Below are positions 9,111 through 34,156 of a stretch of DNA of 64,000 bases, in pieces. How positions within the stretch are numbered: the stretch's first letter is position 1; every line of letters begins with the position of its first letter. The stretch lies in assembly GCF_046105845.1 (NCBI RefSeq), contig NZ_CP151004.1; one strand, 5' to 3'. A model generated the notes under the pieces. It saw nothing but the letters and a program-made list of their open reading frames with translations, made no database searches and was not told the origin of the DNA. The position numbers were made by a program, and so were the translations under genes. Origin of the DNA: Escherichia coli (GTDB lineage: Bacteria > Pseudomonadota > Gammaproteobacteria > Enterobacterales > Enterobacteriaceae).

Positions 9111-9138
9111 GCTTAACATCTGAGTTTGATGTTAAAAT

Positions 9139-9214: not shown

Positions 9215-9217
9215 GAG

Positions 9218-9293: not shown

Positions 9294-9344
9294 GATACTG
9301 CGCTGGATACTACAAACTACTTCCACCGAACCCACCGTAATTAG

Positions 9345-9420: not shown

Positions 9421-9422
9421 GG

Positions 9423-9498
9423 TGGTGGGTGATGACGGGATCGAACCGCCGACCCCCTCCTTGTAAGGGAGGTGCTCTCCCAGCTGAGCTAATCACCC
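9423..9498 (-). tRNA. valT: tRNA-Val (anticodon UAC)
   Basis: Identical tRNA-Val(UAC) copy, 2 nt after lysW. Confidence 0.97.
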
Positions 9499-9533
9499 GA
9501 TACTACGCTGGATACTACAACTAACTAGGTTAG

Positions 9534-9607
9534 TGGTGGGTCGTGCAGGATGACTCGACTTCGTCTCGCCCTTCGGGCCGTTGCTGACGCAACGTTATCC
9601 TTCACGT
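9534..9607 (-). repeat. spacer repeat containing an 18-nt tRNA-Lys 3'-end fragment (second copy)
   Basis: Same truncated tRNA 3' end plus shared spacer sequence as 9041-9110. Confidence 0.6.
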
Positions 9608-9633
9608 TTTACTACCGCTTCCACCTTAGCGAT

Positions 9634-9709
9634 TGGTGGGTCGTGCAGGATTCGAACCTGCGACCAATTGATTAAAAGTCAACTGCTCTACCAACTGAGC
9701 TAACGACCC
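9634..9709 (-). tRNA. lysT: tRNA-Lys (anticodon UUU), first gene of the operon
   Basis: Identical 76-nt tRNA-Lys copy; promoter-proximal position in the minus-strand operon. Confidence 0.97.
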
Positions 9710-9873
9710 ACTTTTTCGTTGCTTTCGGTTTGTTTGATATCCCGTGGCAACGGCGGCATATATTACTGATTTCAGACTTGAGCGCAACAAAAATTTCGAT
9801 GTAGATCACTCAACTGCTTATGATTCGCACGACACGACCAGAAATAATGCGACTTCTGGTCGTGTGTTATGCA

Positions 9874-10665
9874 TTACATCGCGTTAAGACGTTTTTGTGC
9901 CTGTTTAGCGCCATCAGTACCAGGGTATTTACTGATAACCTGCTGGTATACGGCTTTCGCTTTTGCGGTGTCACCTTTGTCCTGCATGATGACACCGACT
10001 TTAAACATCGCATCTGCAGCCTTTGGCGACTTCGGATAGTTTTTTACTACCGAAGCAAAATAGTACGCCGCATCATCTTTTTTACCCTTGTTGTAGTTTA
10101 ACTGACCCAGCCAATAATTGGCGTTTGGCAGGTAAGTTGAATCAGGGTAATTTTTGATGAAATTCTGAAATGCCACCATTGCGTCATCCTGGCGGGATTT
10201 ATCCTGCACCAGCGCAATTGCTGCATTGTAATCCGTGTTTGCATCACCGCTTTTCACCGGCGCGCCAGCATTCGCAGTACCAGCATCAGCTGTCGGCGTC
10301 GTTGATGCCGCCGCACCGCTTTGATCGCCGCTGGTTGATTGCGCCGCTGCACCACCGCTGCTGAGGCTATCGATCTGCAACAGGATCTGCTTTTGCCGCT
10401 CCACGACCTGATTCAGTTGATACTGATTTTCCTGAATCTGACCACGCAGGGAATCAATATCGGATTGATTATCAGAGAGTTGTTGCTGGAGTTGGGTTAA
10501 AAGCTGGCTGTGAGCATTTGAAATACGCTCAAGTTGAGTGACGCGGTCTTCGACCGAGCCTGAGCCGACACTACTGATTGGTGCCTGAGCAAAAGCGGCC
10601 CAGGGGGCCGCTATACCAACCAGTAACGACAGACTCAATAGTTGATGTCTGAAGTTACTGCTCAT
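9874..10665 (-). CDS. cpoB: cell division coordinator CpoB (YbgF), TPR protein of the Tol-Pal cluster
   Basis: 263 aa, signal peptide, coiled-coil then TPR repeats; matches E. coli CpoB. Confidence 0.95.
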   Translation of the reverse strand: MSSNFRHQLLSLSLLVGIAAPWAAFAQAPISSVGSGSVEDRVTQLERISNAHSQLLTQLQQQLSDNQSDIDSLRGQIQENQYQLNQVVERQKQILLQIDSLSSGGAAAQSTSGDQSGAAASTTPTADAGTANAGAPVKSGDANTDYNAAIALVQDKSRQDDAMVAFQNFIKNYPDSTYLPNANYWLGQLNYNKGKKDDAAYYFASVVKNYPKSPKAADAMFKVGVIMQDKGDTAKAKAVYQQVISKYPGTDGAKQAQKRLNAM

Positions 10666-10674
10666 GCAATTCTC

Positions 10675-11220
<546 letters not shown>

Positions 11221-11230
11221 TTAATTATTA

Positions 11231-12523
11231 TCACAGATACGGCGACCAGGCAGGGAATTTGACCTGTCCATCAGTTGCCGGAAGACGCGCTTTGAAACGC
11301 CCATCTGTAGAAACCAAATTCAGCACGGATCCCATCCCCTGAGAAGAGCTGTAGATTACCATAGTGCCGTTAGGTGCCAGACTTGGCGTTTCATCCAGGA
11401 ACGTGGACGACAGAACTTGTACGCCTCCCGTTGCCAGATCTTGTTTGGCAATGTGCTGCTGCCCACCATTGGAGCTGACCATTACCATAAATTTACCGTC
11501 GCTGCTGACATCCGCATCCTGGTTCTGCGAACCTTCCCAGGTAATACGTTGTGGCGCACCGCCGTTGATATTCACTTTATAAACCTGTGGACGACCGGCC
11601 TGGTCAGAAGTAAATGCCAGGTTCTGGCTGTCCGGGAACCAGGTCGGTTCGGTATTGTTACTGCGACCATCCGTCACCTGGCGGATCTGACCAGAAGCCA
11701 AATCCATTACGTACAGGTTCAGACTACCGGTTTTCGACAAGGCGAATGCCAGTTTGCTGCCGTCTGGCGAGAATGCAGGTGCACCGTTGTGACGCGGGAA
11801 TGAAGCCACCTGACGTACAGCGCCATTTGCCAGCGTTTGGATGACCAGCGCGGAACGACCGCTTTCGAAGGTCACATAAGCCAGTTTAGAACCGTCTGGT
11901 GACCACGCCGGAGACATCAGCGGCTGCGGTGAACGGTGAACGACAAACTGGTTGTAACCGTCATAGTCAGATACGCGCAGTTCATACGGGAACTGACCGC
12001 CGTTGGTCTGAACAACGTAGGCAATACGGGTACGGAACGCACCTTTAATGCCGGTCAGTTTTTCAAACACTTCATCACTGGCGGTATGACCAGCATAACG
12101 CAGCCACTGCTTGTTCACTTTGTACGAGTTCTGAGCAAGTACAGTACCCGGTGCGCCGCCAGTGTCAACAAGTTGATAAGCAACATTGTAAGAACCATCC
12201 GGATTCGGAGTGACCTGACCGACAACTACAGCGTCAATACCCAGCGCGGACCATGCAGCTGGTTGTACTTCCTGCGCACTACCCGGCTGCTGTGGCAGAC
12301 GAGCGCGATCTAACGGATTAAATTTACCGCTGTTACGCAAGTCAGCAGCAACGATGCCGCCAATATCTTCAGGTGCCGCACCAGGACCCGCCCACTGGAA
12401 AGGAACAACACCAATAGGACGACCGGAATCTACACCGCTGTCGATCACAATGCGGACTTCAGCATGCAGAACTGATGCCCACAGTATGAGAAAACCAAAT
12501 GCTACTCGTAATGCCTGCTTCAT
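11231..12523 (-). CDS. tolB: Tol-Pal system periplasmic beta-propeller protein TolB
   Basis: 430 aa from [21 protein letters not shown]; matches E. coli TolB. Confidence 0.96.
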
Positions 12524-17269: not shown

Positions 17270-18838
17270 TTAGCGTGCCGGCTGAGTAGTCGTGGAAGAC
17301 TGCTCAAAGTGATAGCGACCGGTTTTCAGGCTGCTTGGGCCGAGGCGTGCAAATTTGAACATTAAGAACAATTCTGCCACCAGGAACAGGGTATACAGGC
17401 CGCAAATCAGCACCATTGAGAAGATGAGATCGCCTGCGGTCAGTGACGAGTTCGCCACAGCTGTCGGCAGCACTTCACCGATAGCCCACGGTTGGCGGCC
17501 ATATTCAGCCACGAACCAGCCCGCTTCTACAGCAATCCACGGCAGCGGAATACCGTACAGCGCGGCGCGCAGCAGCCATTTTTTCTCGCCAATACGGTTG
17601 CGGATGACACTCCAGAAAGAGAGCGCGATGATTGCCAGCAGCAGGAAGCCACACGCCACCATGATACGGAACGCGAAGTACAGCGGCGCTACACGCGGAA
17701 TGGAGTCTTTGGTTGCCTGTTGAATCTGCGCTTCAGTCGCATCAGCCACGTTTGGCGTATAGCGTTTCAGCAGCAGACCGTAACCGAGGTCTTTCTTCAT
17801 GCTATTGAACTGGTCACGAACCGCCTGGTCGGTAGAACCAGAACGCAGTTGCTCGAGCAGAGAGTACGCCTTCATCCCGTTACGAATGCGTTCTTCATGC
17901 TGCACCATCAGTTCTTTCAGGCCGATAACTGGAGTATCCACGGAACGCGTTGCAATGATGCCCAGCGCGTAAGGGATCTGGATCGCAAATTTGTTCGTCT
18001 CCTCTTCCTGATCAGGAATGCCGAACAGAGTAAAGGCAGCAGGCGCAGGTTGCGTTTCCCACTCGGCTTCAATAGCAGCCAGTTTGGTTTTCTGCACGTC
18101 GCCCATTTCGTAACCAGATTCATCACCCAGAACAATAACAGACAGAACGGCAGCCATACCGAAGCTGGCAGCGATAGCAAAGGAGCGTTTAGCGAAGGCG
18201 AAGTCACGACCTTTCAGCATATACCATGCGCTGATACCGAGGATGAACATCGCGCCAGTCACATAACCAGACGCTACAGTGTGAACGAATTTCACCTGAG
18301 CAACCGGGTTAAGCACCAGCTCGGAGAAGCTCACCATCTCCATACGCATAGTTTCAAAGTTGAAATCGGACGCGATTGGGTTTTGCATCCAGCCGTTCGC
18401 AACCAGAATCCACAGTGCGGACAGGTTTGAACCGAGCGCCACCAGCCAGGTGACACACATATGCTGAACTTTACCCAGACGATCCCAACCGAAGAAGAAC
18501 AGACCTACAAAGGTGGATTCGAGGAAGAAGGCCATCAGACCTTCGATTGCCAGCGGCGCACCGAAGATATCCCCTACATAGTGGGAATAGTAAGACCAGT
18601 TAGTCCCGAACTGGAACTCCATGGTCAGACCGGTTGCCACACCCAGAGCGAAGTTGATACCAAACAACTTGCCCCAGAACTTGGTCATATCTTTATAAAT
18701 CTGTTTGCCGGAAAGGACGTAGACCGTTTCCATAATGGCCAGCAGGAACGCCATACCGAGCGTCAGTGGCACAAAAAGGAAGTGGTACATCGCGGTCAAG
18801 GCAAACTGTAAGCGCGACAGTTCGACTATATCTAACAT
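17270..18838 (-). CDS. cydA: cytochrome bd-I ubiquinol oxidase subunit I
   Basis: 522 aa from [28 protein letters not shown]; the ORF-track start one codon upstream is rejected. Confidence 0.97.
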
Positions 18839-19175
18839 CATGACTCCTTGCTCATCGCATGAAGACTCCGAGAGTGAACCCCGTTAGAAAGGGTCACACG
18901 CATGCCCCAATACAAAATTATTTGCTCGCCTCTATCGTTGCCATTTCATCAAAAGAGGAAAAGACAATGATAAAAAAGTTACAAATATGTTAATGAATAA
19001 ACCAAATTGATCCCGTAATTATATTACGCCGCAAAATCCTTACAATAAACAGGTTTTTATTGAGCAAATTTGCATTTTTCGACAGTGATCAATTTATAGC
19101 GAAATTGTCACGATCTCACCAATTTGATCTACGACAATTTATCGTGTTTTGCAGATTTTTTTCAAGAATTAAAAA

Positions 19176-19189
19176 TTGATTTATATCAA
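19176..19189. promoter_or_regulatory. FNR-type palindrome in the cydA upstream regulatory region
   Basis: Perfect TTGAT-N4-ATCAA (ttgatttatatcaa) about 340 bp upstream of the cydA ATG; cydAB is FNR/ArcA-controlled in E. coli. Confidence 0.5.
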
Positions 19190-19643
19190 AACCAACCAAA
19201 TATGTTAATTATGTATAAACCATAGATCATTGGTGATTTTATTGTTAATTTATTGTGAAATATTTATGCAACACAATTATTACAATGAAAAGGTATAGAT
19301 AAAAAACCAGTGTTTTATTTAACAGAACCGCCTTATCCACTTTTTATAATACCAATTGATTAGATTAGCCAATTTGTTGCTATTTTACATAACATATTTT
19401 TATCAAAGTTAATTGATTGTTGCCTTTATGAGCACCGGCCGTAAGCCCGTTATGTTATTGTTTCATTAGTAATAATCACTTAAATGTATCGATGAAACAG
19501 GTATGACTTAGCGGGAGTGATTGTTTCTGAGTGAACAGAGACCACTTTCGCCTGATAAATGAAAAATGAGCGATTTTTGCAAGTTAGTTTTTCTATAGCC
19601 GAGTACGCTCAGCGCCTCGCTTGATTACAATGAGGTTGCTGCT

Positions 19644-20588
19644 ATGAGTCCTGATAATATCAGTTCTGCTGTCAATCGCTTCTCAGGTTGGCCATCTAAT
19701 AATCCTCTAAAAACAGATAACGAATCAATGACATCACCCATGACTGTGCAGGTAATAAAGATGATTGCCGCCATCCTTGACCCACATCGGATAGTCGTTG
19801 GAATCGATACACTTTATACAACGCAGCGCGAAACATTTACCTCAGAGAGTCAACAGCTCATTGAATCAGCATTGCAAACACTTCATGTGATGAATTTAAA
19901 TAACCTGGAAACAAATCTCGATGAGGAAGGTCACTATCTGGCTTTTGGATATAACGTTGACACTCCTGACAGAATAACCGTTTCTGCTTATAATGAAAAA
20001 AAGCCTGGCTGCTATGGCCAATGTCTTTTAATACAGGATGACGAAACAGACTTATTTAACCTGATAAAAGTTAAAATTTTTGAAGCCAGGCATAATTATG
20101 TCGCTCAATTGATGAGCGATCCGGAATTTATGTTCAAATTTAGTTATAGCGCTCAACAAAATAGATTAGAACCTCATCTTCTGGTTCCCACTTATTTCCC
20201 TCTAAAAACAAACGAACCGGTTACGCAAGAGGATGTACTGTTACTTTATCGTTTCTTTAAAATGGATGGTGATTTTAATATATTAACATCAGATGAATAC
20301 ATGAGTATCATGACACCTCTGATGAAGTGTGAGCGCAGCATCCACGACCACAACAGGTATGTGACGGGCAAAGATACCCTTCTTCTGGACTATCCTCCTT
20401 CTGGTAACCAGATATATTTCCATATTTTTCCTGACGAATCAGCAACACTAGTCCTTTATTTTTCAAACAATGACATTGAATGTTTCGTCTTTGAAAGAGA
20501 TATTCCGAGCCAGTATCGCTTTTTCAAAATGTTTACCAATCTGGCACTGGTTATTGATCAGTTAACCGATGCCAATCAAATACTTTAA
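19644..20588 (+). CDS. hypothetical protein, no recognisable family (orphan island gene A)
   Basis: 314-aa ORF with a GAGG RBS 7 nt upstream; markedly AT-rich (24 G+C in the first 60 nt); Ser/Asn/Pro-rich N-terminus. Confidence 0.7.
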   Translation: MSPDNISSAVNRFSGWPSNNPLKTDNESMTSPMTVQVIKMIAAILDPHRIVVGIDTLYTTQRETFTSESQQLIESALQTLHVMNLNNLETNLDEEGHYLAFGYNVDTPDRITVSAYNEKKPGCYGQCLLIQDDETDLFNLIKVKIFEARHNYVAQLMSDPEFMFKFSYSAQQNRLEPHLLVPTYFPLKTNEPVTQEDVLLLYRFFKMDGDFNILTSDEYMSIMTPLMKCERSIHDHNRYVTGKDTLLLDYPPSGNQIYFHIFPDESATLVLYFSNNDIECFVFERDIPSQYRFFKMFTNLALVIDQLTDANQIL

Positions 20589-20668
20589 TTTTTATATATT
20601 CTCTGTGGCAAATATTGCTAAACAATGCCCGGGGATTAATTTTTATTACTCACGGAAAGATTTAAATA

Positions 20669-21091
20669 ATGATCCCATCTCAAATCTCTTTCAACACCCT
20701 TCCTGTCAATGCAACATACGCTTCAGAGACAACAGTTGACACACAAAAATTCTCTGACATCCTCTACTCAGCGGGGTGTTCCCTAAAGGATCTGGCTTAT
20801 CTGAGCAGATGTCTGGCATCAATACATCCGACTATCGCCAAAAACATTTATGAAACAGAAAATCTCAGCGATCAAAAATTACTACATATTGATTGCCGTA
20901 GTACAAATGAAATCAAGATAAATATCTTTTTTGGTCAACAACGAGAAGGATTAATTGAAATTAGTTCTGACACAGTCATTTTTTCGATACTGTCTTCATT
21001 GATTGACTCCACCATTTCTAAATTTCAACACCAAAACCCCGTTAACGGTTCTGTAAATCCTGGCCTATTGTATGAGGATTATACTGATTAA
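20669..21091 (+). CDS. hypothetical small acidic protein (orphan island gene B)
   Basis: 140-aa ORF 80 bp downstream of gene A on the same strand; AT-rich; about 16 Asp/Glu versus 9 Lys/Arg by count. Confidence 0.65.
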   Translation: MIPSQISFNTLPVNATYASETTVDTQKFSDILYSAGCSLKDLAYLSRCLASIHPTIAKNIYETENLSDQKLLHIDCRSTNEIKINIFFGQQREGLIEISSDTVIFSILSSLIDSTISKFQHQNPVNGSVNPGLLYEDYTD

Positions 21092-21638
21092 ATCCCTCCT
21101 GTCGCGAAAAATGGCCTGCGTTATTGCCAGACGTAATAAAACTTTTGATTAACGTTTCTCGTACTGGTAGCACTTTCATGTACTTTTCTTTTTTACGAAA
21201 AATCAAAAGAGCTAACAAAGGTCATAATTCGCATGAATCATTAATTATTTGTTATTTTCAACATTATTTTTACATTAAGCAGAGATGAATTGCAGTGAAA
21301 TTCGACTTAACTTTTACGAAATGCATTTACTCATGGCTAAAGCCACGTCACAAAAATGCAAATTAGAAGTTGATCACAATTATCTCAATACATCAAATCA
21401 AGTTAATTTTAAAAATTTAACATTCATGACATTAGTTGACATAACACACTGAATTAAAATGAGAATTTGGAAACACACTTTAAACAATCATTTCCCGAAA
21501 GACATTTTGAAAATAGATCAATTGCAACATTACGGTCAGATAAAGACACTCCTGTGATATTAAACCTGTGCCGTTATGAACGGCCATAAATACGGCGTGT
21601 GTAACTTATTTTACTCTCTGTCTTACAAAGGATTACCC

Positions 21639-22088
21639 ATGAAGAAAGCAACACTTGTGATTGGCGTTATTGGCGCGGACTGCCATGCAGTAGGCAATAA
21701 AGTTCTGGACCGCGTTTTTAGCAACCATGGCTTCAGAGTCATTAATCTGGGCGTAATGGTCAGCCAGGACGAATATATTGATGCTGCCATTGAAACTGGC
21801 GCTGACGCGATTGTCGTCTCCTCTATCTATGGGCATGGCGATATCGACTGTCTGGGCATGCGCGAACGCTGCATCGAGCGTGGGCTGGGTAACATCCTGC
21901 TCTATGTGGGCGGTAACCTGGTGGTCGGAAAACATGACTTCGCTGACGTGGAAACCAAATTCAAAGAGATGGGATTTGATCGCGTCTTTTCCCCAAGTCA
22001 TGACTTAGAAGATGTTTGTCAGCTGATGGCCCACGATATCAACCAACGTCATGACGTTGATACTCGTATTCTTGAAGAGGCAATCTGA
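21639..22088 (+). CDS. glmS: glutamate mutase (methylaspartate mutase) small S subunit, cobalamin-binding; clostridial GlmS/MutS, not glucosamine-6-P synthase
   Basis: 149 aa from [24 protein letters not shown] with AAGGA RBS; DxHxxG B12-binding motif; strong similarity to Clostridium MutS/GlmS as I recall it; ORF-track start at 21576 rejected. Confidence 0.9.
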
Positions 22089-23476
22089 TGCAAATCGTCT
22101 CTGTCGATATTGGATCGACGTGGACCAAAGCAGCCCTCTTCGCCCGGGAGGGGGACGCGTTAACGTTGGTTAACCACGTACTGACCCCAACCACCACCCA
22201 TCATCTGGCGAAGGGGTTTTTCTCCAGCCTGAACCTGGTGTTAAACGTAGATAATGCCCTCCCCCTGTTTAACAGCGGTGAGGTTGCATTGAAGTATTCC
22301 TCCTCTGCCAAAGGTGGGCTGGCGGTTGCCGCAATGGGATTGGTGCCTTCTATCACCCTGGAAACCGCGAAAGTAACCGCTCACTCTGCGGGTGCTAAAA
22401 TTGCGCAATATTACGCCTACAAGCTGAACCGTCGTGATATCCAGGCACTGGAAGAAACGCAGCCCGATATTCTCTTGTTCACCGGCGGCACCGATGGCGG
22501 AGAAGAAAGCTACGGACTGAATAACGCCCGTGTGTTGGCAGAATCCAAACTCGACTGCGCCATTATTTATGCCGGAAACCGGGATATTCAGGACGAGGTG
22601 CAGGAGATCCTCGGGCATAAAGACCTGACCATCGTCGACAACGTTCTGCCCGATCTTGACCATCCGAACCCTTTAGCTGCACGCCAGGCTATCTGCGACA
22701 TATTCCTTAAACGCATCGTTAAAGGGAAAGGGCTGGATGTCGTTGTTGATAAAACAGGCGAAGAACCAATGCCGACACCGTGGACAGTCTTTGAACTGGT
22801 TAAGGCAATCAGTAATGTCGATCACAGCTGGAAAGAGTTCATGCTGATCGACATGGGTGGCGCAACCACCGATGTCTATTCCGCCTGTGCCAACACGCTC
22901 TCGCCCGACACCGTTTTACACGGCGTACCGGAACCCTTCGTGAAACGGACGGTGGAAGGCGATCTGGGAATGCGCGTCTCGGCAATGGTGGTTGGTGAAA
23001 GTGCGAAAGAGTTAGTCAATGTGAATTTTGCTCAGCAACCCGCACAGCTGGACGCTTTTTATCATTACCTCCGTCATCTAGTCGCTCATCCCGACTACTT
23101 ACCCGCGAATGCAGAAGAAAAATATTTCGATACCGTCCTGGCCGGACTGTGTGTGGGTTATGCCACCGAAAGACATGCGGGCACCAAAAAAGAGGTCTGC
23201 ACCTGCGTCGGCAATGTCGATTTACAGATGGGACGTGACCTGACAACCGTGCGTAAAGTCGTCGGATCCGGCGGATGGCTCTCGCGTGCCAGTCAGTTCG
23301 ATATGCATCACTGGTTGAAATACCGCGAGTTAAACGACGACGGTAAACGCATTCTCTTACCGACCGAATTTGAATATTACCGCGATTCCCGGGGGCTATT
23401 ACCACTGCTGGCAAACGTCGCCAGAGTCGATCCGCTGGCCGCCGCGCGCACCAGTATTCAATGCTTAACCCTATAA
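22088..23476 (+). CDS. glmL: glutamate mutase-associated protein GlmL/MutL (putative mutase reactivase/chaperone)
   Basis: 462 aa; start overlaps the glmS stop (TGATG); N-terminus IVSVDIGSTWTKAALF is an ASKHA-like ATPase fold motif; conserved position between the S and E subunit genes. Confidence 0.85.
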   Translation: MQIVSVDIGSTWTKAALFAREGDALTLVNHVLTPTTTHHLAKGFFSSLNLVLNVDNALPLFNSGEVALKYSSSAKGGLAVAAMGLVPSITLETAKVTAHSAGAKIAQYYAYKLNRRDIQALEETQPDILLFTGGTDGGEESYGLNNARVLAESKLDCAIIYAGNRDIQDEVQEILGHKDLTIVDNVLPDLDHPNPLAARQAICDIFLKRIVKGKGLDVVVDKTGEEPMPTPWTVFELVKAISNVDHSWKEFMLIDMGGATTDVYSACANTLSPDTVLHGVPEPFVKRTVEGDLGMRVSAMVVGESAKELVNVNFAQQPAQLDAFYHYLRHLVAHPDYLPANAEEKYFDTVLAGLCVGYATERHAGTKKEVCTCVGNVDLQMGRDLTTVRKVVGSGGWLSRASQFDMHHWLKYRELNDDGKRILLPTEFEYYRDSRGLLPLLANVARVDPLAAARTSIQCLTL

Positions 23477-23494
23477 CAATTAAGGCTGCAATCA

Positions 23495-24940
23495 ATGGAA
23501 CTTCGAAATAAGAAATTAACCCATGACGAATTCATGACCGAGCGGCAACAGGTACTGAAAACCTGGGAAACCGGCAAGGATGTTGAAAACTTTGAAGATA
23601 GCGTTAAATACCAACAAACCATTCCTGAGCATAAACGCTTCTCTCTTGCGCTGTTGAAAGCAGACAAGGAAGGTAAAACCCTTAGCCAACCGCGCGCAGG
23701 TGTGGCGCTGATGGACGAACACATCGAACTACTGAAAACACTACAAGAAGAGTGCGATCTGCTGCCGAGCACTATCGATGCATATACCCGTCTGAATCGG
23801 TACGAAGAAGCGGCTGTAGGGATTAAAAAATCCATCGAAGCCGGAACCTCTAAACTGAACGGTTTGCCGGTAGTTAACCATGGCGTCGCAGCTTGCCGTC
23901 GCCTCACCGAAGCCCTGCAAAAACCGCTACAGATCCGCCACGGCACGCCAGATGCGCGTCTGCTGGCTGAAATCTCGATGGCCAGCGGCTTTACCAGTTA
24001 TGAAGGCGGCGGCATTTCCTACAATATTCCGTATGCCAAGCGCGTAACGCTGGAAAAATCGATCCGCGACTGGCAGTACTGCGACCGTTTAATGGGGATG
24101 TATGAAGAACACGGGATCCGCATCAACCGCGAACCGTTTGGCCCACTAACGGGTACGCTGATCCCGCCGTTTATCTCGCACTCTATCGCGATAATCGAAG
24201 GATTGCTGGCACTGGAACAGGGTGTGAAATCTATCACCGTTGGTTATGGCCAAGTCGGCAGCCTGACGCAGGATGTTGCGGCGATCCAGTCTCTGCGTGA
24301 ACTTGCACACGAATATTTTCAGAGCTATGGCTATACCGACTATGAATTGAGTACCGTGTTTCACCAGTGGATGGGCGGCTTTCCGGAAGACGAATCGAAA
24401 GCGTTCGCTATTATCTCCTGGGGCGCAGCCGTCGCGGGGATGTCTGGTGCCACCAAAGTCATCACCAAAAGTCCGCACGAAGCCTGGGGAATCCCGACTG
24501 CCGCTGCCAACATTCAGGGGCTGAAAGCCTCCCGCCAGATGCTCAACATGGTCAATGAGCAGAAATTCCCGCCGTGCCCTGCGGTTGAACTGGAAATTGA
24601 ACTGATTAAGAGCGAGGTTCGCGCGGTACTGAATAAAGTGTTCGAACTGGGTAATGGTGATATTGCGCGCGGTACGGTGCTGGCATTTGAAGCGGGCGTA
24701 CTGGATGTGCCGTTTGCGCCAGCCGCCTGCAACGCGGGCAAAATTCTTCCGGTCCGTGACAACACCGGCGCGATACGCGTACTGGAAGCCGGAGCCGTTC
24801 CATTGCCAAAAGATATTCTCGACCTCCACCACGATTACGTTGCGGAACGCGCACGCTTTGAAGGACGCCAACCGACATTCCAGATGGTTGTAGATGACAT
24901 CAATGCTGTATCCCACAGTAAATTAATAGGAAGACCATAA
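23495..24940 (+). CDS. glmE: glutamate mutase (methylaspartate mutase) large E subunit
   Basis: 481 aa; long collinear similarity to Clostridium GlmE/MutE (MELRNKKLT...QPRAGVALMDEHIELL...HQWMGGFPEDESKAF...). Confidence 0.93.
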   Translation: MELRNKKLTHDEFMTERQQVLKTWETGKDVENFEDSVKYQQTIPEHKRFSLALLKADKEGKTLSQPRAGVALMDEHIELLKTLQEECDLLPSTIDAYTRLNRYEEAAVGIKKSIEAGTSKLNGLPVVNHGVAACRRLTEALQKPLQIRHGTPDARLLAEISMASGFTSYEGGGISYNIPYAKRVTLEKSIRDWQYCDRLMGMYEEHGIRINREPFGPLTGTLIPPFISHSIAIIEGLLALEQGVKSITVGYGQVGSLTQDVAAIQSLRELAHEYFQSYGYTDYELSTVFHQWMGGFPEDESKAFAIISWGAAVAGMSGATKVITKSPHEAWGIPTAAANIQGLKASRQMLNMVNEQKFPPCPAVELEIELIKSEVRAVLNKVFELGNGDIARGTVLAFEAGVLDVPFAPAACNAGKILPVRDNTGAIRVLEAGAVPLPKDILDLHHDYVAERARFEGRQPTFQMVVDDINAVSHSKLIGRP

Positions 24941-26181
24941 TGAAAATAAAACAGGCCCTGTTCACCGCTGGCTATTCCTCATTCTATTTCGATGACCAGC
25001 AGGCGATAAAAAACGGAGCGGGTCACGACGGCTTTTTTTATACCGGGGAGCCAGTAACACAGGGGTTTAACGCCGTACGTCAGGCCGGGGAGTGCGTATC
25101 GGTACAGTTGATTCTGGAAAACGGCGCGGTCGCCGTAGGTGACTGTGCTGCCGTACAGTATTCCGGGGCAGGTGGTCGCGATCCACTGTTCCTCGCGGAG
25201 CACTTTATTCCGTTCCTCAACGACCATATCAAGCCATTACTGGTAGGCCGCGATGTGGATGCTTTCCTGCCGAATGCCCGTTTCTTCGACAAATTGCGTA
25301 TTGACGGCAACTTGCTGCATACCGCCGTGCGCTACGGATTATCACAGGCGCTGCTTGATGCTACCGCGCTGGCAACCGGCCGTCTGAAAACTGAAGTGGT
25401 CTGTGATGAATGGCAGTTGCCACGCGTGGCGGAATCCATTCCATTATTTGGTCAGAGCGGCGACGATCGATATATCGCCGTCGATAAGATGATCCTTAAG
25501 GGCATCGACGTGCTGCCCCATGCGCTGATTAATAACGTCGAAGAGAAGCTGGGCTTTAAAGGTGAAAAACTGCGCGAATATGTCCGCTGGCTGTCGGATC
25601 GTATTCTGAGCAAGCGCACCAGCGCACGCTACCACCCTACCCTGCACATCGATGTATACGGCACTATCGGTCTGATCTTCGATATGGATCCGCTTCGCTG
25701 TGCGCAATACATCGCCAGCCTGGAAAAAGAAGCGCAAGGCCTGCCGCTCTACATTGAAGGGCCGGTCGATGCCGGTAACAAGCCCGATCAAATTCGCCTG
25801 CTGTCCGCGATTACCAAAGAGCTGACGCGCCTCGGTTCCGGCGTGAAAATTGTGGCCGATGAATGGTGTAACACCTACCAGGATATTGTTGATTTCACTG
25901 ATGCCGCCAGTTGCCACATGGTGCAAATCAAAACCCCGGATCTGGGCAGTATTCACAACATCGTCGATGCGGTTCTTTACTGCAACAGCCACAGCATGGA
26001 AGCGTACCAGGGCGGCACCTGCAATGAAACTGATGTCAGTGCCCGCACCTGTGTCCACGTCGCCCTTGCCGCTCGCCCTATGCGTATGCTGGTAAAGCCA
26101 GGGATGGGCTTTGACGAAGGCCTCGATATCGTCTTCAACGAAATGAATCGTACTATCGCGCTGTTGCAGGCTAAGGATTAA
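24940..26181 (+). CDS. mal: 3-methylaspartate ammonia-lyase (beta-methylaspartase)
   Basis: 413 aa; start overlaps the glmE stop; strong similarity to Clostridium MAL (AGHDGF.YTG, CAAVQYSGAGGRDPLFLA, ADEWCNT, HMVQIKTPDLG); enolase-superfamily fold. Confidence 0.93.
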   Translation: MKIKQALFTAGYSSFYFDDQQAIKNGAGHDGFFYTGEPVTQGFNAVRQAGECVSVQLILENGAVAVGDCAAVQYSGAGGRDPLFLAEHFIPFLNDHIKPLLVGRDVDAFLPNARFFDKLRIDGNLLHTAVRYGLSQALLDATALATGRLKTEVVCDEWQLPRVAESIPLFGQSGDDRYIAVDKMILKGIDVLPHALINNVEEKLGFKGEKLREYVRWLSDRILSKRTSARYHPTLHIDVYGTIGLIFDMDPLRCAQYIASLEKEAQGLPLYIEGPVDAGNKPDQIRLLSAITKELTRLGSGVKIVADEWCNTYQDIVDFTDAASCHMVQIKTPDLGSIHNIVDAVLYCNSHSMEAYQGGTCNETDVSARTCVHVALAARPMRMLVKPGMGFDEGLDIVFNEMNRTIALLQAKD

Positions 26182-26184
26182 CAA

Positions 26185-27555
26185 ATGGCTCGTTCTTTTA
26201 AAGTCTTATCGCCAACGGCAATCCTCGGGTATGGATTCCCGGAAGAGAGCTTCCGCAAAGCGATGGCAGAATCGCCCGATCTGATCGCCGTTGATGCAGG
26301 CTCTTCCGATCCTGGCCCCCACTACCTCGGAGCGGGCAAACCGTTTACCGATCGCGCAGGGGTCAAGCGCGATCTGCGCTATATGATCACCGCAGGCGTG
26401 CAAAATAATATACCGGTGGTGATCGGAACGGCCGGCGGTTCTGGTGCCGCTCCACACCTGGAGTGGTGCCGAGAAATAATTCATGAGATTGCCCGGGAAG
26501 AGCACCTCTCGTTCTCGATGGCGCTGATCCCGGCAGACGTTGACAAAGCCATCGTCCACCAGGCGCTGGATAACGGCAAAATCACGGCGCTGGATTTTGT
26601 CCCGCCGTTAACCCACGACGCGATTGACGAAAGTACGTATATCGTCGCGCAAATGGGCATCGAACCCTTCCAGCAGGCGCTGAAAGAAGGCGCGCAAGTG
26701 GTGCTGGGCGGGCGCGCTTACGACCCGGCCTGCTTTGCTGCGCTACCGATCATGCAAGGCTTTGATGAAGGTCTGGCGCTGCATTGTGGGAAAATCCTTG
26801 AATGCGCGGCAATCGCCGCAACGCCCGGCTCAGGCTCTGACTGTGCGATGGGCATCATTGATGACAACGGCTTTACGCTGAAGACATTTAATCCGAAGCG
26901 TAAATTTACCGAAACGTCAGCAGCTGCACACACACTGTATGAGAAATCCGATCCCTACTTCCTGCCTGGACCTGGCGGCGTGTTGAACCTGAAAGACTGC
27001 ACATTTAAAGCGGTCAATGACGGCGAAGTGTACGTCAGCGGTTCTAAGCATGAAGAAACGCCGTATGCCCTGAAACTGGAAGGTGCACGACGGGTGGGCT
27101 TCCGCTGTCTGACCATCGCAGGAACGCGCGACCCGATCATGATCGCCGGGATCGATAAAATCATCGATGAAGTCAAAACCAGCGTTTCGCGTAACCTGTC
27201 GCTCGACGATGACAGCATTCACATCAATTTCCACCTGTACGGCAAAAACGGGGTGATGGGCGACCATGAACCGATGCAAACTGCCGGGCATGAGCTGGGG
27301 ATTGTCCTAGATGTAGTTGCGCCGACCCAGGAAATTGCCAACAGCGTTTGCTCGCTGGTGCGCTCTACTATGCTGCACTACGGCTATGAAAACCGCATCG
27401 CTACCGCAGGCAACCTGGCGTTCCCGTTCTCCCCTTCTGATATCCAGGGCGGGCCGGTATACGAATTTTCCATATATCACCTGATTGAAGCCAACGACGC
27501 TCTGCGTTTTGATTTCCATATTGAACAGGTGACGCCAGAAGGAGTTCAGGCATGA
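26185..27555 (+). CDS. uncharacterised protein, possibly DUF1446/AtuA-like family (assignment from memory, unverified)
   Basis: 456-aa ORF 3 nt after the mal stop in the same operon; Gly-rich motif GTAGGSGAAP; no enzymatic family recognised with certainty. Confidence 0.75.
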   Translation: MARSFKVLSPTAILGYGFPEESFRKAMAESPDLIAVDAGSSDPGPHYLGAGKPFTDRAGVKRDLRYMITAGVQNNIPVVIGTAGGSGAAPHLEWCREIIHEIAREEHLSFSMALIPADVDKAIVHQALDNGKITALDFVPPLTHDAIDESTYIVAQMGIEPFQQALKEGAQVVLGGRAYDPACFAALPIMQGFDEGLALHCGKILECAAIAATPGSGSDCAMGIIDDNGFTLKTFNPKRKFTETSAAAHTLYEKSDPYFLPGPGGVLNLKDCTFKAVNDGEVYVSGSKHEETPYALKLEGARRVGFRCLTIAGTRDPIMIAGIDKIIDEVKTSVSRNLSLDDDSIHINFHLYGKNGVMGDHEPMQTAGHELGIVLDVVAPTQEIANSVCSLVRSTMLHYGYENRIATAGNLAFPFSPSDIQGGPVYEFSIYHLIEANDALRFDFHIEQVTPEGVQA

Positions 27556-27869
27556 AACAGTCAATTGTCTCACTGGCGCAAGTCATTCGTTCGAAAAATG
27601 CCGGACCTTACGAACTGGTTTTAGATATTTTATTTAAAACCAAAGAAAACTATGAGCGAGTTAAATCATCAGGGCAATTAACCCCAGAACTGATCGCGCG
27701 CTTATATCATGTTGAACCTGACTTTATTCATCGTATTGTCTGGTTTGATCCTTCTAACGCAGTAAAAATCGTCATGCCACGAGATATTATCTCCGGGAAT
27801 GTAGGTGACAATGATGTCTATGGTGCACAGCAACATGCACCTTTATTAAATATGAGTTTCGATTTGTAA
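27552..27869 (+). CDS. small uncharacterised protein, possibly DUF4387-like partner of the preceding gene
   Basis: 105-aa ORF whose ATG overlaps the upstream stop (ATGA), indicating translational coupling. Confidence 0.7.
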   Translation: MKQSIVSLAQVIRSKNAGPYELVLDILFKTKENYERVKSSGQLTPELIARLYHVEPDFIHRIVWFDPSNAVKIVMPRDIISGNVGDNDVYGAQQHAPLLNMSFDL

Positions 27870-28029
27870 AAATCCGAATACTTTTAGCCAACTGACATCC
27901 CGTCACTTATTGCAGTTCAACACTTCAGCTATTTGTAAGGTTGTAATAGCAGGTAGATGCCTGAATCTCTATTCAGGCATCTACTTCTCCTGATTCTGAT
28001 TTATCGCCGTGCACCTGATGGAGGAAAAA

Positions 28030-29310
28030 ATGAAGAAAATAAGTTTAACCACGATGATTCTTTTGGCGCTGGTACTTGGAATGATTATCGGCGTAGTGCT
28101 CAATAACACTGCTTCACCGGAAACCGCAAAACTCTATGCGCAAGAAATATCGATATTCACGACGATTTTCTTACGACTGATAAAAATGATTATCGCTCCG
28201 TTAGTGGTCTCTACCCTGGTGGTAGGTATAGCTAAAATGGGCGATGCCAAAGCCCTTGGTCGTATTTTTTCTAAAACACTCTTTTTATTTATTTGCGCCT
28301 CATTGCTGTCAATTGCCTTAGGCTTGATAACAGTAAATTTCTTCATGCCAGGCACAGGAATTAATTTTGTTGCACACGGAGTCGAAACCACCGGAGTGGT
28401 CGCGTCAGAACCCTTTACGCTAAAAGTATTTATTTCGCATGCTTTCCCCACCAGCATTGTCGATGCCATGGCGCACAATGAAATTTTGCAAATCGTGGTG
28501 TTCTCAATTTTCCTCGGCTGTAGCCTGACGGCGATTGGCGAGAAAGGCAGCGCCATCGTTCACGCCTTAGATTCGCTGGCACATGCCATGTTAAAGCTCA
28601 CTGGCTACGTCATGCTCTTCGCTCCCCTGACCGTATTCGCTGCTATTTCAGCATTGATTGCTGAACGAGGACTGGCAGTTATGGTGAGCGCCGGGATCTT
28701 TATGGGTGAATTTTATTTCACCATGTTATTACTTTGGGTGCTGCTTATCGGTCTGGCCATCGTTTATGTCGGCCCCTGCATCAGACGCCTGACCCGCGCC
28801 CTTTCGGAACCCGCCCTGCTGGCATTTACCACATCCAGTTCTGAAGCGGCTTTTCCGGGAACGCTTGAAAAACTGGAGCAATTTGGCGTTTCCCCCAAAA
28901 TTGCCAGCTTTGTCTTACCCATTGGCTACTCATTTAATCTCGTTGGATCAATGGCCTACTGCTCCTTCGCCACAGTTTTCATCGCCCAGGCCTGCAATAT
29001 CCATTTATCCATCGGTGAGCAAATCACCATGCTGTTGATCCTGATGTTGACCTCGAAAGGAATGGCTGGCGTACCACGCGCCTCAATGGTGGTTATCGCC
29101 GCCACGCTCAACCAGTTCAATATTCCGGAAGCGGGGCTGATCTTGCTGATGGGCGTTGATCCGTTCCTTGATATGGGGCGTTCCGCGACAAACGTCATGA
29201 GCAACGCAATGGGCGCTGCGATGGTGAGTCGGTGGGAAGGCGAACATTTCGGCGAGGGCTGTCGGGGTAAAGCATTAAAACCCAATGAATCGAACGTTGC
29301 TCTGCCCTGA
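28030..29310 (+). CDS. dicarboxylate/amino acid:cation symporter (GltP/DctA family), probable glutamate or C4/C5-dicarboxylate importer
   Basis: 426 aa from MKKISLTTMILLALVLGMIIG with GGAGG RBS 6 nt upstream; multi-TM profile typical of the DAACS family; ORF-track GTG start at 28009 rejected. Confidence 0.85.
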   Translation: MKKISLTTMILLALVLGMIIGVVLNNTASPETAKLYAQEISIFTTIFLRLIKMIIAPLVVSTLVVGIAKMGDAKALGRIFSKTLFLFICASLLSIALGLITVNFFMPGTGINFVAHGVETTGVVASEPFTLKVFISHAFPTSIVDAMAHNEILQIVVFSIFLGCSLTAIGEKGSAIVHALDSLAHAMLKLTGYVMLFAPLTVFAAISALIAERGLAVMVSAGIFMGEFYFTMLLLWVLLIGLAIVYVGPCIRRLTRALSEPALLAFTTSSSEAAFPGTLEKLEQFGVSPKIASFVLPIGYSFNLVGSMAYCSFATVFIAQACNIHLSIGEQITMLLILMLTSKGMAGVPRASMVVIAATLNQFNIPEAGLILLMGVDPFLDMGRSATNVMSNAMGAAMVSRWEGEHFGEGCRGKALKPNESNVALP

Positions 29311-29417
29311 GGGGGATCTTAAGCAATCAGAAGCCAATGACTACGCATTTTTATAAGCCGGATCATGAAGTTAGACGGCAATTAAGTAACACTAACGTTT
29401 AAGGTGAAAAGTGAAAT

Positions 29418-31070
29418 ATGTCAAAACCATTTATCTGGCAAGAACCGTTTCTACAAAATAAAGACGGTACAGAATATACATTAATTAGCGATCAGCATAT
29501 TACAGTAACGGAATTAGACGGCGAAGAAGTGATAAAAATCGCTCCTGAAGCATTAACGCTGCTTGCCCGGCAGGCATTTTATGAAGCCTCTTTTTTCTTA
29601 CGTTCCGCTCATTTGCAACAGGTCGCCAGCATTCTTAACGATCCGCAGGCCAGTAGTAATGATAAATACGTTGCGTTGCAGTTATTACGTAATGCTGAAG
29701 TCTCAGCAAAAGGGGTATTACCCAACTGTCAGGATACCGGCACCGCAACTATTGTTGCCAGTAAAGGGCAACAGATATGGACGGGAGGTAACGACGCTGA
29801 AGCCTTAAGCAAAGGCATTTACAGTACTTTCCAGGAAAATAATCTGCGCTTTTCACAAAATGCGCCGCTGGATATGTATACCGAAGTCAATACGCAAACC
29901 AATCTCCCGGCGCAGATTGATATCAGCGCTGTCGCTGGTAATGAGTACCATTTTCTCTGTGTTAATAAAGGGGGCGGCTCCGCCAATAAAGCCGCGCTTT
30001 ATCAGGAAACCAAATCCCTATTGCAACCAGAAAAACTGACCGCATTTTTAATCGAAAAAATGAAATCGCTGGGCACCGCTGCCTGCCCGCCTTACCACAT
30101 CGCCTTTGCCGTCGGAGGGCTTTCAGCCGATCAAACCTTAAAAGTTGCCAAGCTGGCCTCAACGAAATATTACGACAATTTGCCCACCAGCGGAAACGAG
30201 CAGGGACAAGCATTCCGTGATATTGAGCTGGAAAAAGTGTTGCTCGAGGCCAGTCAGCAATTTGGTATTGGTGCGCAATTTGGGGGTAAATATTTCGCTC
30301 ATGATATTCGCGTCATTCGTCTGCCGCGTCACGGTGGCTCTTGCCCGATAGCTATGGCGCTCTCCTGTTCTGCCGATCGCAATATCAAAGCAAAAATTAA
30401 CAAGCACGGTATCTGGCTGGAAAAACTCGAACACAATCCGGGGCAATATATTCCAGCCTCACTGCGGGAAGAAAACCACGCGCAACATGTACAACTGGAT
30501 CTAAACCGTCCGTTGCGTGACGTGATGCAGGATCTCGCCAGATTACCGGTAGGCACCCGCGTGTCGTTAAATGGTCCCATCGTAGTGGCGCGCGATATCG
30601 CCCACGCCAAAATAAAAGCGCGGCTGGATAGCGGCGAACCGATGCCGGATTACCTGAAGCATCATATTGTCTATTACGCTGGCCCGGCGAAAACACCTGA
30701 TAACATGGCCTGCGGTTCACTGGGTCCAACCACGGGCGGTCGAATGGACGGTTATGTCGATACCTTCCAGGCGGCTGGCGGCAGCCTGGTGATGTTATCG
30801 AAAGGTAACCGCAGCCAGCAGGTCACCGATGCCTGTCACAAACATGGCGGCTTCAATCTGGGAAGTATTGGCGGTGCAGCTGCGTTACTGGCGCAAGAAT
30901 ATGTCAAAAGTCTGCGTTGCCTGGAATACCCGGAGCTGGGTATGGAAGCGGTGTGGATGATGGAAGTGGAAAATCTGCCCGCATTCATTCTGGTAGATGA
31001 TAAAGGCAATAATTTCTTTAGTCAGTTTGAACAGCAACACCGCTGCGCCAGTTGCCCTGCGGGACATTAA
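29418..31070 (+). CDS. fumD: class I (Fe-S, FumA/FumB-type) fumarate hydratase paralog, probable mesaconase/fumarase
   Basis: 550 aa, collinear with E. coli FumA/FumB throughout (PFIWQEPF..., CQDTGTA, GGGSANK, CPPYHIA, HGGSCP) but clearly divergent; sits in the methylaspartate operon. Confidence 0.9.
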
Positions 31071-31079
31071 GGAAAATGA

Positions 31080-31682
31080 ATGGAAGCGCGAATTTCAACT
31101 GAACGGCATGTGCAGCGCCAGCAGAAATTGAAGGAACAGGTCGATACGCGCGTCGCGGCGGCGATAGAGAAAAAAGGGATCTTGATTGTTTTCACCGGCA
31201 ACGGCAAAGGGAAATCCACTGCCGCGTTTGGTACTGTAACGCGCGCGGTGGGTCATGGCAAAACGGTGGGGGTTGCGCAGTACATCAAGGGGCAATGGGA
31301 CAACGGCGAATACAACCTTCTCCAGCCGCTGGGGGTTGAGTTTCATATTATGGGAACCGGTTTTACCTGGGAGACACAGAACCGGCAAGCGGATATCGAC
31401 GCGGCGAAAGAGGTCTGGTCGGAAAGCAAACGGATGCTGGCTGACAAGCGTTACGACTTAGTGGTGCTTGATGAGCTGACCTATATGCTGGCTTACCATT
31501 ATCTGGATACCGAAGAAGTGATCGCTTCTCTGCAAAACCGCCCGGCACAACAAAGTGTCATTGTCACCGGACGCGGTTGCCACAGTCAGATATTAAAAAT
31601 GGCGGATACGGTCAGCGAAATCCGCCCCGTCAAACATGCTTTTGATAACGGCATTCAGGCCCAGCCGGGTATCGACTGGTAA
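31080..31682 (+). CDS. cob(I)yrinic acid a,c-diamide / cob(I)alamin adenosyltransferase (BtuR/CobA/CobO family)
   Basis: 200 aa; GNGKGKSTAAFG P-loop and collinear similarity to E. coli BtuR; AAGGAAA RBS. Confidence 0.9.
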   Translation: MEARISTERHVQRQQKLKEQVDTRVAAAIEKKGILIVFTGNGKGKSTAAFGTVTRAVGHGKTVGVAQYIKGQWDNGEYNLLQPLGVEFHIMGTGFTWETQNRQADIDAAKEVWSESKRMLADKRYDLVVLDELTYMLAYHYLDTEEVIASLQNRPAQQSVIVTGRGCHSQILKMADTVSEIRPVKHAFDNGIQAQPGIDW

Positions 31683-31685
31683 TAA

Positions 31686-31717
31686 CTGCGCCTGGCATCC
31701 CGCCAGGCGCAGGTTTT
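31686..31717. terminator. bidirectional hairpin terminator between the operon end and the convergent LysR gene
   Basis: ctgcgcctgg-catcccg-ccaggcgcag stem-loop followed by tttt; overlaps the LysR stop codon on the other strand. Confidence 0.55.
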
Positions 31718-32621
31718 ACATCTCCTGCGGTACAACCGATTTCGCCAGCAACCATTCACGAAATTGCTGCAAGTGCGGTGAGTCAGACTTCTCTTCCTGC
31801 CACGTCATAATAAAACGATTACCGGTACGAATAGGCACATCACAGGGGATCACCATATCGCCACTATCCAAATCATGTTGAATAGCGAAACGTGGTAACA
31901 GCGCCACGCCGAGATTCGAGCGCACGGCGGCAATCAGCATTGAAAGCAAATCGAAACGTGGTCCGTTGTTGACCAGCGGACTGCTAACGCCAGATAAGGC
32001 AAACCACTCTTCCCAGCCAGTAATACGGGTACTTTGATGCAGAAGTGGTAACTCTGTAAGCAGTTCTGCCACTGACAGTTTTTGATCGGACATTGTAAGC
32101 AAACTGCCGCTGCATACCGGCAAAATCTCCTCTTCAAAGAGATATTCTACTTCCGCCCAGGGCGCGCAAAAATTTTCGCGCATAATGACAGCATCGTACT
32201 CCCGATTAAGAAAATCGCCGTTATTAGCTAAAGAGTGAATATTAACAATAATATCGGAATGTAACTTTGTGAATTCATGTAAATTTGGGATTAACCAGTG
32301 GGTACTAAACGTAGGATTCACGGCAAGTTCAATAACCTTAACCGTAGGCTGCCAGGTCATAATGGTATTGGTATCGCGTTCCAGCTTATTTAATGTTTCT
32401 TTTACTATCCCCAGGTAATACTTCCCTGCATCATTAAGAAAAATACGTTTTTTAGAGTGTGAAAATAACGGAGTATGTAAAAATTCCTCCAGCGCACTCA
32501 CTTGTCTGAATACTGCACTTTGGGTCAACGCTAACTCCTCTGCCGCTCTGGTATAACTTTCATGACGTGCGACGACCTCAAAAGTCACCAGCAGCTCCGT
32601 TTTAGGTATTTTTCCTCGCAT
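31716..32621 (-). CDS. LysR-family transcriptional regulator
   Basis: 301 aa; N-terminal wHTH (ELLVTFEVVARHESYTRAAEELALTQSAVFRQVSALEEFL) plus substrate-binding domain; convergent with the operon. Confidence 0.9.
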   Translation of the reverse strand: MRGKIPKTELLVTFEVVARHESYTRAAEELALTQSAVFRQVSALEEFLHTPLFSHSKKRIFLNDAGKYYLGIVKETLNKLERDTNTIMTWQPTVKVIELAVNPTFSTHWLIPNLHEFTKLHSDIIVNIHSLANNGDFLNREYDAVIMRENFCAPWAEVEYLFEEEILPVCSGSLLTMSDQKLSVAELLTELPLLHQSTRITGWEEWFALSGVSSPLVNNGPRFDLLSMLIAAVRSNLGVALLPRFAIQHDLDSGDMVIPCDVPIRTGNRFIMTWQEEKSDSPHLQQFREWLLAKSVVPQEM

Positions 32622-33185
32622 AATGCCGTCCCTTAAAAATAGTTTAAACCATCAAAAATACATTACTTATTACGAAGTAATGGTAACCAAAGCAGCAATA
32701 AATAATTTATAAGAATCATGATTGACATTTATAACCCAGTAAGCCTGGCGTGACAAATATCTTAATCAGATAATAATAATCCGAAAAGCACAGCGCCTTT
32801 CGAATTATCCGGAATCACATTAAGTGAAAATTATTAAATTGATATCATTTATCATATCTGTGGATATTATGATAAACAATCAACAAAGATTTTATTTTTG
32901 ATTTATAGCATATCCCTCTAAGAATTTTTGCGATGCTGCAATATCCGGGGTAAAGACCCGATCCTGGCTGACAAATGGCACGACTTGACGATAAGCGGTG
33001 AACATCGCTTTTGTTGATTTACTTAACGCTACGGTCAAACGCTGGGAAGCCAGTGCATCAGGTAACGATTCGAAATTCGCCGTCGTTCTTATTCGTGGCT
33101 TGCGGTCGGTTGCGGCAATCCACAGTGGCTGTGGTCATGCAGTCAAGCCAGCGGTCAGATTTCGACCGTGGTTAACATTTAAGGC

Positions 33186-33286
33186 ATAAAAAAGGCCATC
33201 ATATGATGGCCAACCATGTCGAAACCGACAGCCCTTCGCCATTCCTGTAGAGGGAAGCGGCGAGGGCTATTTCTTATTACAGATAT
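33186..33286 (-). ncRNA. sdhX: probable SdhX (RybD) sRNA from the sucD 3' UTR with intrinsic terminator
   Basis: About 100 nt between the sucD stop and a ggccatcat/atgatggcc hairpin followed by a U-run on the minus strand; positional equivalence to the K-12 sucD 3'-UTR sRNA; sequence identity not verified. Confidence 0.45.
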
Positions 33287-34156
33287 TTATTTCAGAACAG
33301 TTTTCAGTGCTTCACCGATATCCGCCAGGCTGCGAACGGTTTTCACGCCTGCGGCTTCCAGAGCAGCGAATTTCTCATCCGCAGTCCCTTTCCCACCGGC
33401 AATGATCGCACCCGCGTGGCCCATACGTTTGCCTTTCGGCGCAGTCACACCAGCGATGTAACCCACAACAGGCTTGGTAACGTGCTCTTTGATGTACGCA
33501 GCCGCTTCTTCTTCAGCGCTACCGCCGATCTCACCGATCATCACGATCGCTTCGGTCTGCGGATCTTTTTCGAACATTTCGAGGATGTCGATAAAGTTAG
33601 AGCCAGGGATCGGGTCGCCGCCGATACCGACACAGGTCGACTGACCGAAACCGTAATCCGTGGTCTGTTTAACCGCTTCATAGGTCAGTGTACCGGAACG
33701 GGAAACGATACCCACTTTACCCGGTTTGTGAATGTGACCCGGCTGGATACCGATTTTGCATTCACCCGGAGTGATTACGCCCGGACAGTTCGGGCCGATC
33801 ATACGAACGCCTGCTTCATCCAGTTTCACTTTCACGGTCAGCATATCCAGCGTCGGGATGCCTTCAGTGATGGTGATAATCAGTTTGATGCCTGCATCGA
33901 TGGCTTCCAGAATGGAGTCTTTGCAGAACGGTGCTGGTACGTAGATAACAGAAGCGGTAGCGCCAGTAGCAGCAACAGCTTCACGAACGGTGTTGAACAC
34001 CGGCAGGCCGAGGTGGGTGGTGCCGCCTTTACCTGGGGTTACGCCGCCAACCATTTTAGTGCCGTATGCAATAGCCTGTTCTGAGTGGAAAGTCCCCTGG
34101 CTACCGGTAAAGCCCTGGCAGATAACCTTGGTGTTTTTATCAATTAAAATGGACAT
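33287..34156 (-). CDS. sucD: succinyl-CoA synthetase alpha subunit
   Basis: 289 aa; matches E. coli SucD. Confidence 0.97.

Follow-up and report, generated by a model that had tools for sequence, protein, structure and literature searches.

A predicted mesaconase gene, fumD, in a methylaspartate-pathway gene cluster of Escherichia coli

The gene cluster between cydA and sucD

The window, a 64,000-nucleotide stretch of Escherichia coli DNA (contig NZ_CP151004.1), carries between cydA and sucD an island of ~14 kb relative to K-12 (about 19215-33179). The island holds a cluster of ten genes, all intact, in the order glmS-glmL-glmE-mal-cmlA-cmlB-transporter-fumD-cobO on the plus strand, followed by a convergent gene for a LysR-family regulator (Table 1). 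The preliminary description of this DNA had placed a third class I fumarase paralog in a methylaspartate operon, and this placement holds: fumD is the eighth gene of the cluster and stands 3.2-7.8 kb downstream of glmS, glmL, glmE and mal, on the same strand. GlmS, GlmL, GlmE, methylaspartate ammonia-lyase (MAL) and CobO all score above the curated NCBIfam equivalog cutoffs. The glmS profile match starts at residue 22 of the longest open reading frame, which begins at 21576, and thereby supports the annotated start. The transporter is matched by the NCBIfam DctA and GltP models with E values of 1e-90 to 1e-94, yet falls below their cutoffs; it is labelled GltP in Fig 5 of Kronen and Berg (PLoS One 2015; PMC4682846). 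Judged by sequence, the enzyme set of the methylaspartate pathway is complete, i.e. glutamate mutase, MAL, mesaconase and citramalate lyase are all represented.

Table 1. Features of the methylaspartate gene cluster in the window, with predicted functions
Feature	Coordinates	Strand	Predicted product or description	Evidence
glmS	21639..22088	+	glutamate (methylaspartate) mutase, B12-binding subunit S	NF002612 251.9 bits, TIGR01501 245.2 bits, both above cutoff
glmL	22088..23476	+	glutamate mutase accessory/reactivating protein	NF040745 508.5 bits (cutoff 475), TIGR01319
glmE	23495..24940	+	glutamate mutase catalytic subunit E	TIGR01503 864.5 bits (cutoff 390)
mal	24940..26181	+	3-methylaspartate ammonia-lyase, mesaconate producer	TIGR01502 543.9 bits (cutoff 286)
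cmlA	26185..27555	+	AtuA/DUF1446 family, citramalate lyase large subunit	PDB 9erq_A/9evf match
cmlB	27552..27869	+	DUF4387 protein, citramalate lyase small subunit	PDB 9erq_B match
transporter	28030..29310	+	dicarboxylate/amino acid:cation symporter (GltP/DctA-like), presumed glutamate importer	PGAP, NCBIfam
fumD	29418..31070	+	class I (Fe-S) mesaconase/fumarase, 550 aa	ORF, Pfam, NCBIfam, alignments
cobO	31080..31682	+	ATP:cob(I)alamin adenosyltransferase	NF004637 295.6 bits (cutoff 185), TIGR00708
terminator-like hairpin	31686..31712	+	11-pair stem, 9 G-C, within the 33 bases that separate cobO from the convergent LysR gene	terminator scan
LysR-family transcriptional regulator	31716..32621	-	presumed regulator of the cluster	PGAP

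The layout suggests that fumD is probably co-transcribed with the rest of the methylaspartate operon, because the gaps are tight, a terminator scan of the gap between the transporter gene and fumD gives no strong site, and a strong hairpin follows cobO, the strongest terminator-like site within 20900-33400. The first 4 bases of cmlB lie within the end of cmlA, one of several overlaps in the cluster; fumD starts 107 bases after the transporter gene, and cobO follows the fumD stop by 9 bases. CobO is predicted to supply adenosylcobalamin for glutamate mutase.

Control of the cluster by the convergent LysR regulator is presumed; HTH_1 and LysR_substrate domains are found at the orthologous position in the Salmonella, Pseudescherichia, Hafnia and Yersinia clusters. 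A consensus -35 box is often missing from promoters that LysR proteins activate. A scan for consensus sigma-70 promoters returned no plus-strand site ahead of glmS or fumD, and is uninformative because it found fewer sites (9) than the 16.8 expected from shuffled sequence. An Rfam search of 18500-33500, e.g. for a cobalamin riboswitch before glmS, gave no match at E<=0.1.

The fumD product and its relation to FumA and FumB

fumD is an uninterrupted ATG-initiated open reading frame of 550 codons. Its product contains the Pfam domains Fumerase (PF05681; residues 50-325, E 7e-74) and Fumerase_C (PF05683; residues 331-536, E 2e-78), and the occurrence of both on a single chain of ~550 residues, covering residues 50-536, marks it as a class I fumarate hydratase. 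NCBIfam holds three separate full-length models for the enterobacterial class I fumarases: the protein scores 1281.6 bits against the equivalog NF011921 (cutoff 1060), but 924.9 bits against the FumA model NF011919 (cutoff 1105) and 921.4 bits against NF011920 (cutoff 1094), so that the curated FumA and FumB cutoffs are both missed.

In an end-to-end four-way alignment the protein is 68% identical to K-12 FumA and 67% to FumB, the only gaps being one of a single residue at the N-terminus and small ones at the C-terminus. The collinearity over the whole length and the clear divergence from both paralogs that had been described from the sequence are thus borne out. Between FumA and FumB identity is 90%, and because fumD stands outside this pair, it is taken to be a distinct, older paralog. 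A simple duplication of fumA or fumB, the near-identity that was named at the outset as a finding that would overturn the proposal, is ruled out by the same figures. The three enzymes share the two-domain architecture, the Fe-S cysteines and the catalytic residues; the C-terminus of FumD is 2-3 residues longer, and its published substrate preference is reversed relative to that of FumA and FumB. The genomic settings also differ: in K-12 the paralogs are found as manA-fumA-fumC and dcuB-fumB. FumD is the third class I fumarase and the fourth fumarase overall in E. coli, since the species also has the class II enzyme FumC.

The alignment that had been proposed against FumA, FumB and a published-type FumD places the protein firmly with the last. 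With the FumD ortholog of O157:H7 strain F6667 it shares all but 8 of its 550 residues (98.5% identity; P76Q, N175D, A231V, V243I, N385S, D411E, D428E and V447I, window to O157), and all eight substitutions are conservative and none falls at a catalytic or cluster position. The allele compared is that of F6667, and the enzyme that has been assayed is that of strain ATCC 700728. The O157:H7 protein (ECs0757) has the same length, operon, chromosomal site and NCBIfam family, and orthology to this characterised protein rather than to FumA or FumB follows from the identities and from the match to NF011921 above its cutoff. The gene is accordingly identified, from its predicted product, as fumD, the E. 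coli mesaconase/fumarase.

The closest solved structure is that of the Leishmania major fumarase FH-2 (LmFH-2; PDB 5l2r; E 5.5e-211 over residues 18-536), a eukaryotic housekeeping enzyme whose catalytic, substrate and cluster residues are listed in bioRxiv 10.1101/2022.09.03.506457. The LmFH numbering was mapped onto the window protein after subtracting a 36-residue chain offset, and every listed residue is present. The [4Fe-4S] ligands Cys133, Cys252 and Cys346 correspond to C104, C223 and C317, the cluster cysteines already noted in the preliminary description. The catalytic residues Asp135, His334, Thr467, Thr468 and Arg471 correspond to D106, H305, T438, T439 and R442, and the substrate-binding residues Gln134, Arg173, Gly216, Arg421 and Lys491 to Q105, R144, G187, R392 and K462. 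Together with the 542 identical residues and the NF011921 assignment, this conservation supports the proposal that the protein is a candidate mesaconase equivalent to O157:H7 FumD. The requirement for an oxygen-labile [4Fe-4S] cluster comes from the biochemistry of the O157:H7 ortholog (PMC4682846).

Biochemistry of FumD and its proposed step

Gene, name, kinetics and operon context were all published in 2015 and are not new. Kronen and Berg (PMC4682846) named the protein FumD, purified and assayed the O157:H7 enzyme ECs0757, which needs strictly anoxic handling, and reported that this [4Fe-4S] enzyme, active on fumarate as well, hydrates mesaconate to (S)-citramalate reversibly and stereospecifically; what the preliminary description says of both activities is therefore correct. 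The kcat/Km values are 2x10^6 M-1 s-1 for mesaconate and 7.5x10^5 M-1 s-1 for fumarate, so that mesaconate is favoured by a factor of two to three (PMC4682846).

We consider it about 90% probable that the window FumD is likewise an oxygen-sensitive [4Fe-4S] hydro-lyase that hydrates mesaconate within a methylaspartate-pathway operon and retains fumarase activity. In the proposed route glutamate would be imported by the GltP-like symporter and converted to 3-methylaspartate by the adenosylcobalamin-dependent glutamate mutase GlmS/GlmE, with GlmL as reactivase and CobO for cofactor supply; methylaspartate ammonia-lyase would deaminate 3-methylaspartate to mesaconate (methylfumarate), FumD would hydrate the mesaconate double bond, with (S)-citramalate as the product, and CmlAB would cleave the latter to pyruvate and acetate.

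A different view of the enzyme is that FumD serves in the cell as a spare fumarase, e.g. under anaerobic conditions or stress, its mesaconase activity being an instance of class I promiscuity and its operon position incidental. It can draw on the facts that all three class I enzymes hydrate both fumarate and mesaconate, FumA and FumB acting on mesaconate with 4% and 19%, respectively, of their own fumarate efficiency, and that the Vmax of FumD is higher with fumarate (671 vs 292 U/mg; PMC4682846). A Providencia alcalifaciens homolog that shares two signature residues of FumD (below) also lies apart from methylaspartate genes. However, catalytic efficiency favours mesaconate, and the Km of FumD for fumarate, 0.9 mM, is 4-10 times that of FumA and FumB (PMC4682846). 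The gene is moreover linked to glm/mal genes in six of the seven genomic contexts inspected, from six genera, and the 2015 survey found a fumD-type gene in all enterobacterial glm/mal clusters (PMC4682846). A spare fumarase is thus improbable, and the mesaconase reading of FumD is preferred.

The in vivo role of FumD is inferred: Kronen and Berg, under the conditions that they tried, saw neither methylaspartate ammonia-lyase activity in O157:H7 ATCC 700728 nor growth on, or stimulation by, glutamate (PMC4682846). A literature search for post-2015 work on the physiology of the E. coli methylaspartate cluster found nothing substantive.

The putative citramalate lyase CmlAB

The fate of (S)-citramalate was left open in 2015, when citrate lyase, isocitrate lyase and methylisocitrate lyase were found not to cleave it (PMC4682846). 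The two genes between mal and the transporter gene probably settle this question. All 456 residues of the AtuA-family protein are matched by PDB 9erq_A/9evf (E 2.3e-290; ~92% identity by hand count from the alignment), named by the depositors "Citramalate lyase, subunit A (cmlA)", and the DUF4387 protein matches PDB 9erq_B, "Citramalate lyase, subunit B (cmlB)", with an E value of 5e-57. No NCBIfam model matches either protein. A 2026 preprint (10.64898/2026.01.16.699985) uses Raoultella planticola cmlAB, a gift of the Berg laboratory, for the conversion of citramalate to pyruvate and acetate. The CmlAB step is thus inferred from the naming by the PDB depositors and from this one secondary source; a literature search for a primary CmlAB paper, or for a functional study of DUF1446/DUF4387 proteins in this context, returned only the 2015 FumD paper and the one 2026 preprint. 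The AtuA/DUF4387 pair was also considered as a novel missing citramalate-cleaving step, and is not new in that sense, the PDB already naming CmlA and CmlB as citramalate lyase.

With CmlAB included, the operon would seem to cover every step from glutamate to pyruvate, acetate and NH3, FumD being the fourth of the five. The enterobacterial arrangement differs from that of the clostridia. As described in PMC4682846, the putative mesaconases MesAB of Clostridium tetani and C. tetanomorphum consist of split alpha and beta subunits and form a phylogenetically separate branch, and their clusters are accompanied by a citramalate lyase of the CitDEF type, unlike the predicted CmlAB enzyme of the E. 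coli cluster.

Distribution, synteny and selection

Of 5426 complete E. coli genomes, 1117 carry 80% or more of the 12 kb core of the region (21000-33000) at >=95% identity, and 1138 (21%) have any match to the core. Genomes with the island have three places for a class I fumarase and the others two. The window is E. coli chromosome and shares 97-99% identity with other E. coli over gal-tol-cyd and suc-sdh-gltA-kdp. Gene order and the cydA/sucD site are common to O157:H7, Salmonella enterica and Pseudescherichia vulneris. In Hafnia alvei and Yersinia intermedia the genes stand in another order but are still linked, with LysR-fum-cobO adjacent to glmS-glmL-glmE(-mal-AtuA).

The pairwise dN/dS of fumD within E. 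coli is 0.14 against O157 and 0.08 against isolate AF40, and the gene is under purifying selection. The Salmonella FumD protein is still 86% identical to that of the window, across a distance at which dS is not computable, the synonymous differences being too many for distance correction.

These data bear on a further possibility, that the island is silent or decaying in E. coli and that fumD is without current function. The absence of expression and of MAL activity in O157:H7 ATCC 700728 under any condition tried fits such a state, as does the lack of a simple consensus promoter upstream of glmS, although the latter counts for little if the promoter is of the LysR-activated kind. The ten intact genes, their retention in more than 1,100 complete genomes, the low dN/dS and the conservation of the Salmonella protein all speak against decay, and we regard a silent fumD as very improbable, more so than a spare fumarase. 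Kinetic preference, the six-in-seven linkage and purifying selection thus leave both alternatives disfavoured relative to a mesaconase that serves the methylaspartate pathway.

About one fifth of E. coli strains, most O157:H7 included, would carry a B12-dependent route from glutamate to citramalate, which with CmlAB probably continues to pyruvate and acetate, and which could be a gut-niche or virulence-associated trait.

Some other features of the locus are of separate interest. In K-12 the sucD-cydA interval holds mngR-mngA-mngB for mannosylglycerate utilisation (K-12 excerpt 5157-11087). The methylaspartate island fills exactly this interval, and the two gene sets resemble alternative cassettes for a single site. 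At its left edge, between cydA and glmS, the island is of low GC content (38-42%) and contains two plus-strand open reading frames, 19644-20588 (314 aa) and 20669-21091 (140 aa), that E. coli annotations, O157:H7 among them, list as hypothetical, that are without a match in Pfam, NCBIfam, PADLOC or PHROGs, and that are absent at the equivalent position of the Salmonella and Pseudescherichia loci. Farther away, at 57136-61443, ybgA/phrB runs almost directly into ybfA-kdpFABC in the window, and in isolate AF40 ybgA is next to an RHS core protein, RHS fragments and an ISAs1 remnant; the phrB-ybgA stretch is unusually divergent (94.7% identity vs 98-99% elsewhere).

Signature positions of the FumD clade

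Three positions that adjoin functional residues in the sequence separate FumD from FumA, FumB and LmFH, the FumD clade having Gly, Gly and Ser in place of the alanine of the other three. G307 (HGGSCP in FumD, HGASCP in the others) lies two residues after the catalytic His, G440 (PTTGGRMD vs PTTAGRMD) directly after the catalytic Thr-Thr, and S461 (SKGNRS vs AKGNRS) immediately ahead of the substrate-binding Lys. Among the matches listed, each homolog at least 75% identical to FumD has all three residues. G307 and G440 are also kept in a sister clade from Hafnia, Yersinia and Providencia, of which the Hafnia and Yersinia genes are linked to methylaspartate genes, and the pair is found in none of ~58 diverse class I fumarase representatives that cover both positions, a sample that comes from a representative-library search, consists mostly of fragments and has FumA, FumB and FumD within one 50% cluster. 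The 2015 paper discusses no residues (PMC4682846).

It is possible, as a tentative suggestion from these alignments, that G307, G440 and S461 shift FumD from fumarate towards mesaconate, e.g. by an enlarged or re-shaped pocket for the C2-methyl group; two of the changes, from Ala to Gly next to the catalytic acid and base, could plausibly provide space for this methyl group, which is offered as a hypothesis and not as a finding. The association of G307/G440 with methylaspartate clusters is not absolute, because the 550-residue Providencia alcalifaciens class I fumarase that carries both (excerpt 10001-11653) adjoins ABC transporter and fimbrial genes and has no methylaspartate genes within 10 kb. 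This homolog may be a housekeeping enzyme or the relic of a lost cluster.

Annotation

The value of the locus lies mainly in correct annotation, with little that is new beyond the CmlAB match and the candidate specificity positions. PGAP labels fumD, cmlA and cmlB generically, the second as "acyclic terpene utilization AtuA family". The name fumD (mesaconase/fumarase) is preferable to a generic "class I fumarate hydratase", and the "AtuA family" and "DUF4387" genes should be annotated as citramalate lyase subunits. A separate difficulty of naming is seen in the K-12 MG1655 record NZ_CP184745.1, where PGAP gives the symbol "fumB" to the class I fumarase flanked by manA and fumC (excerpt 2971-4617), which is fumA by synteny, and the same symbol to the true dcuB-adjacent fumB, so that symbol-based paralog counts in such records are misleading.
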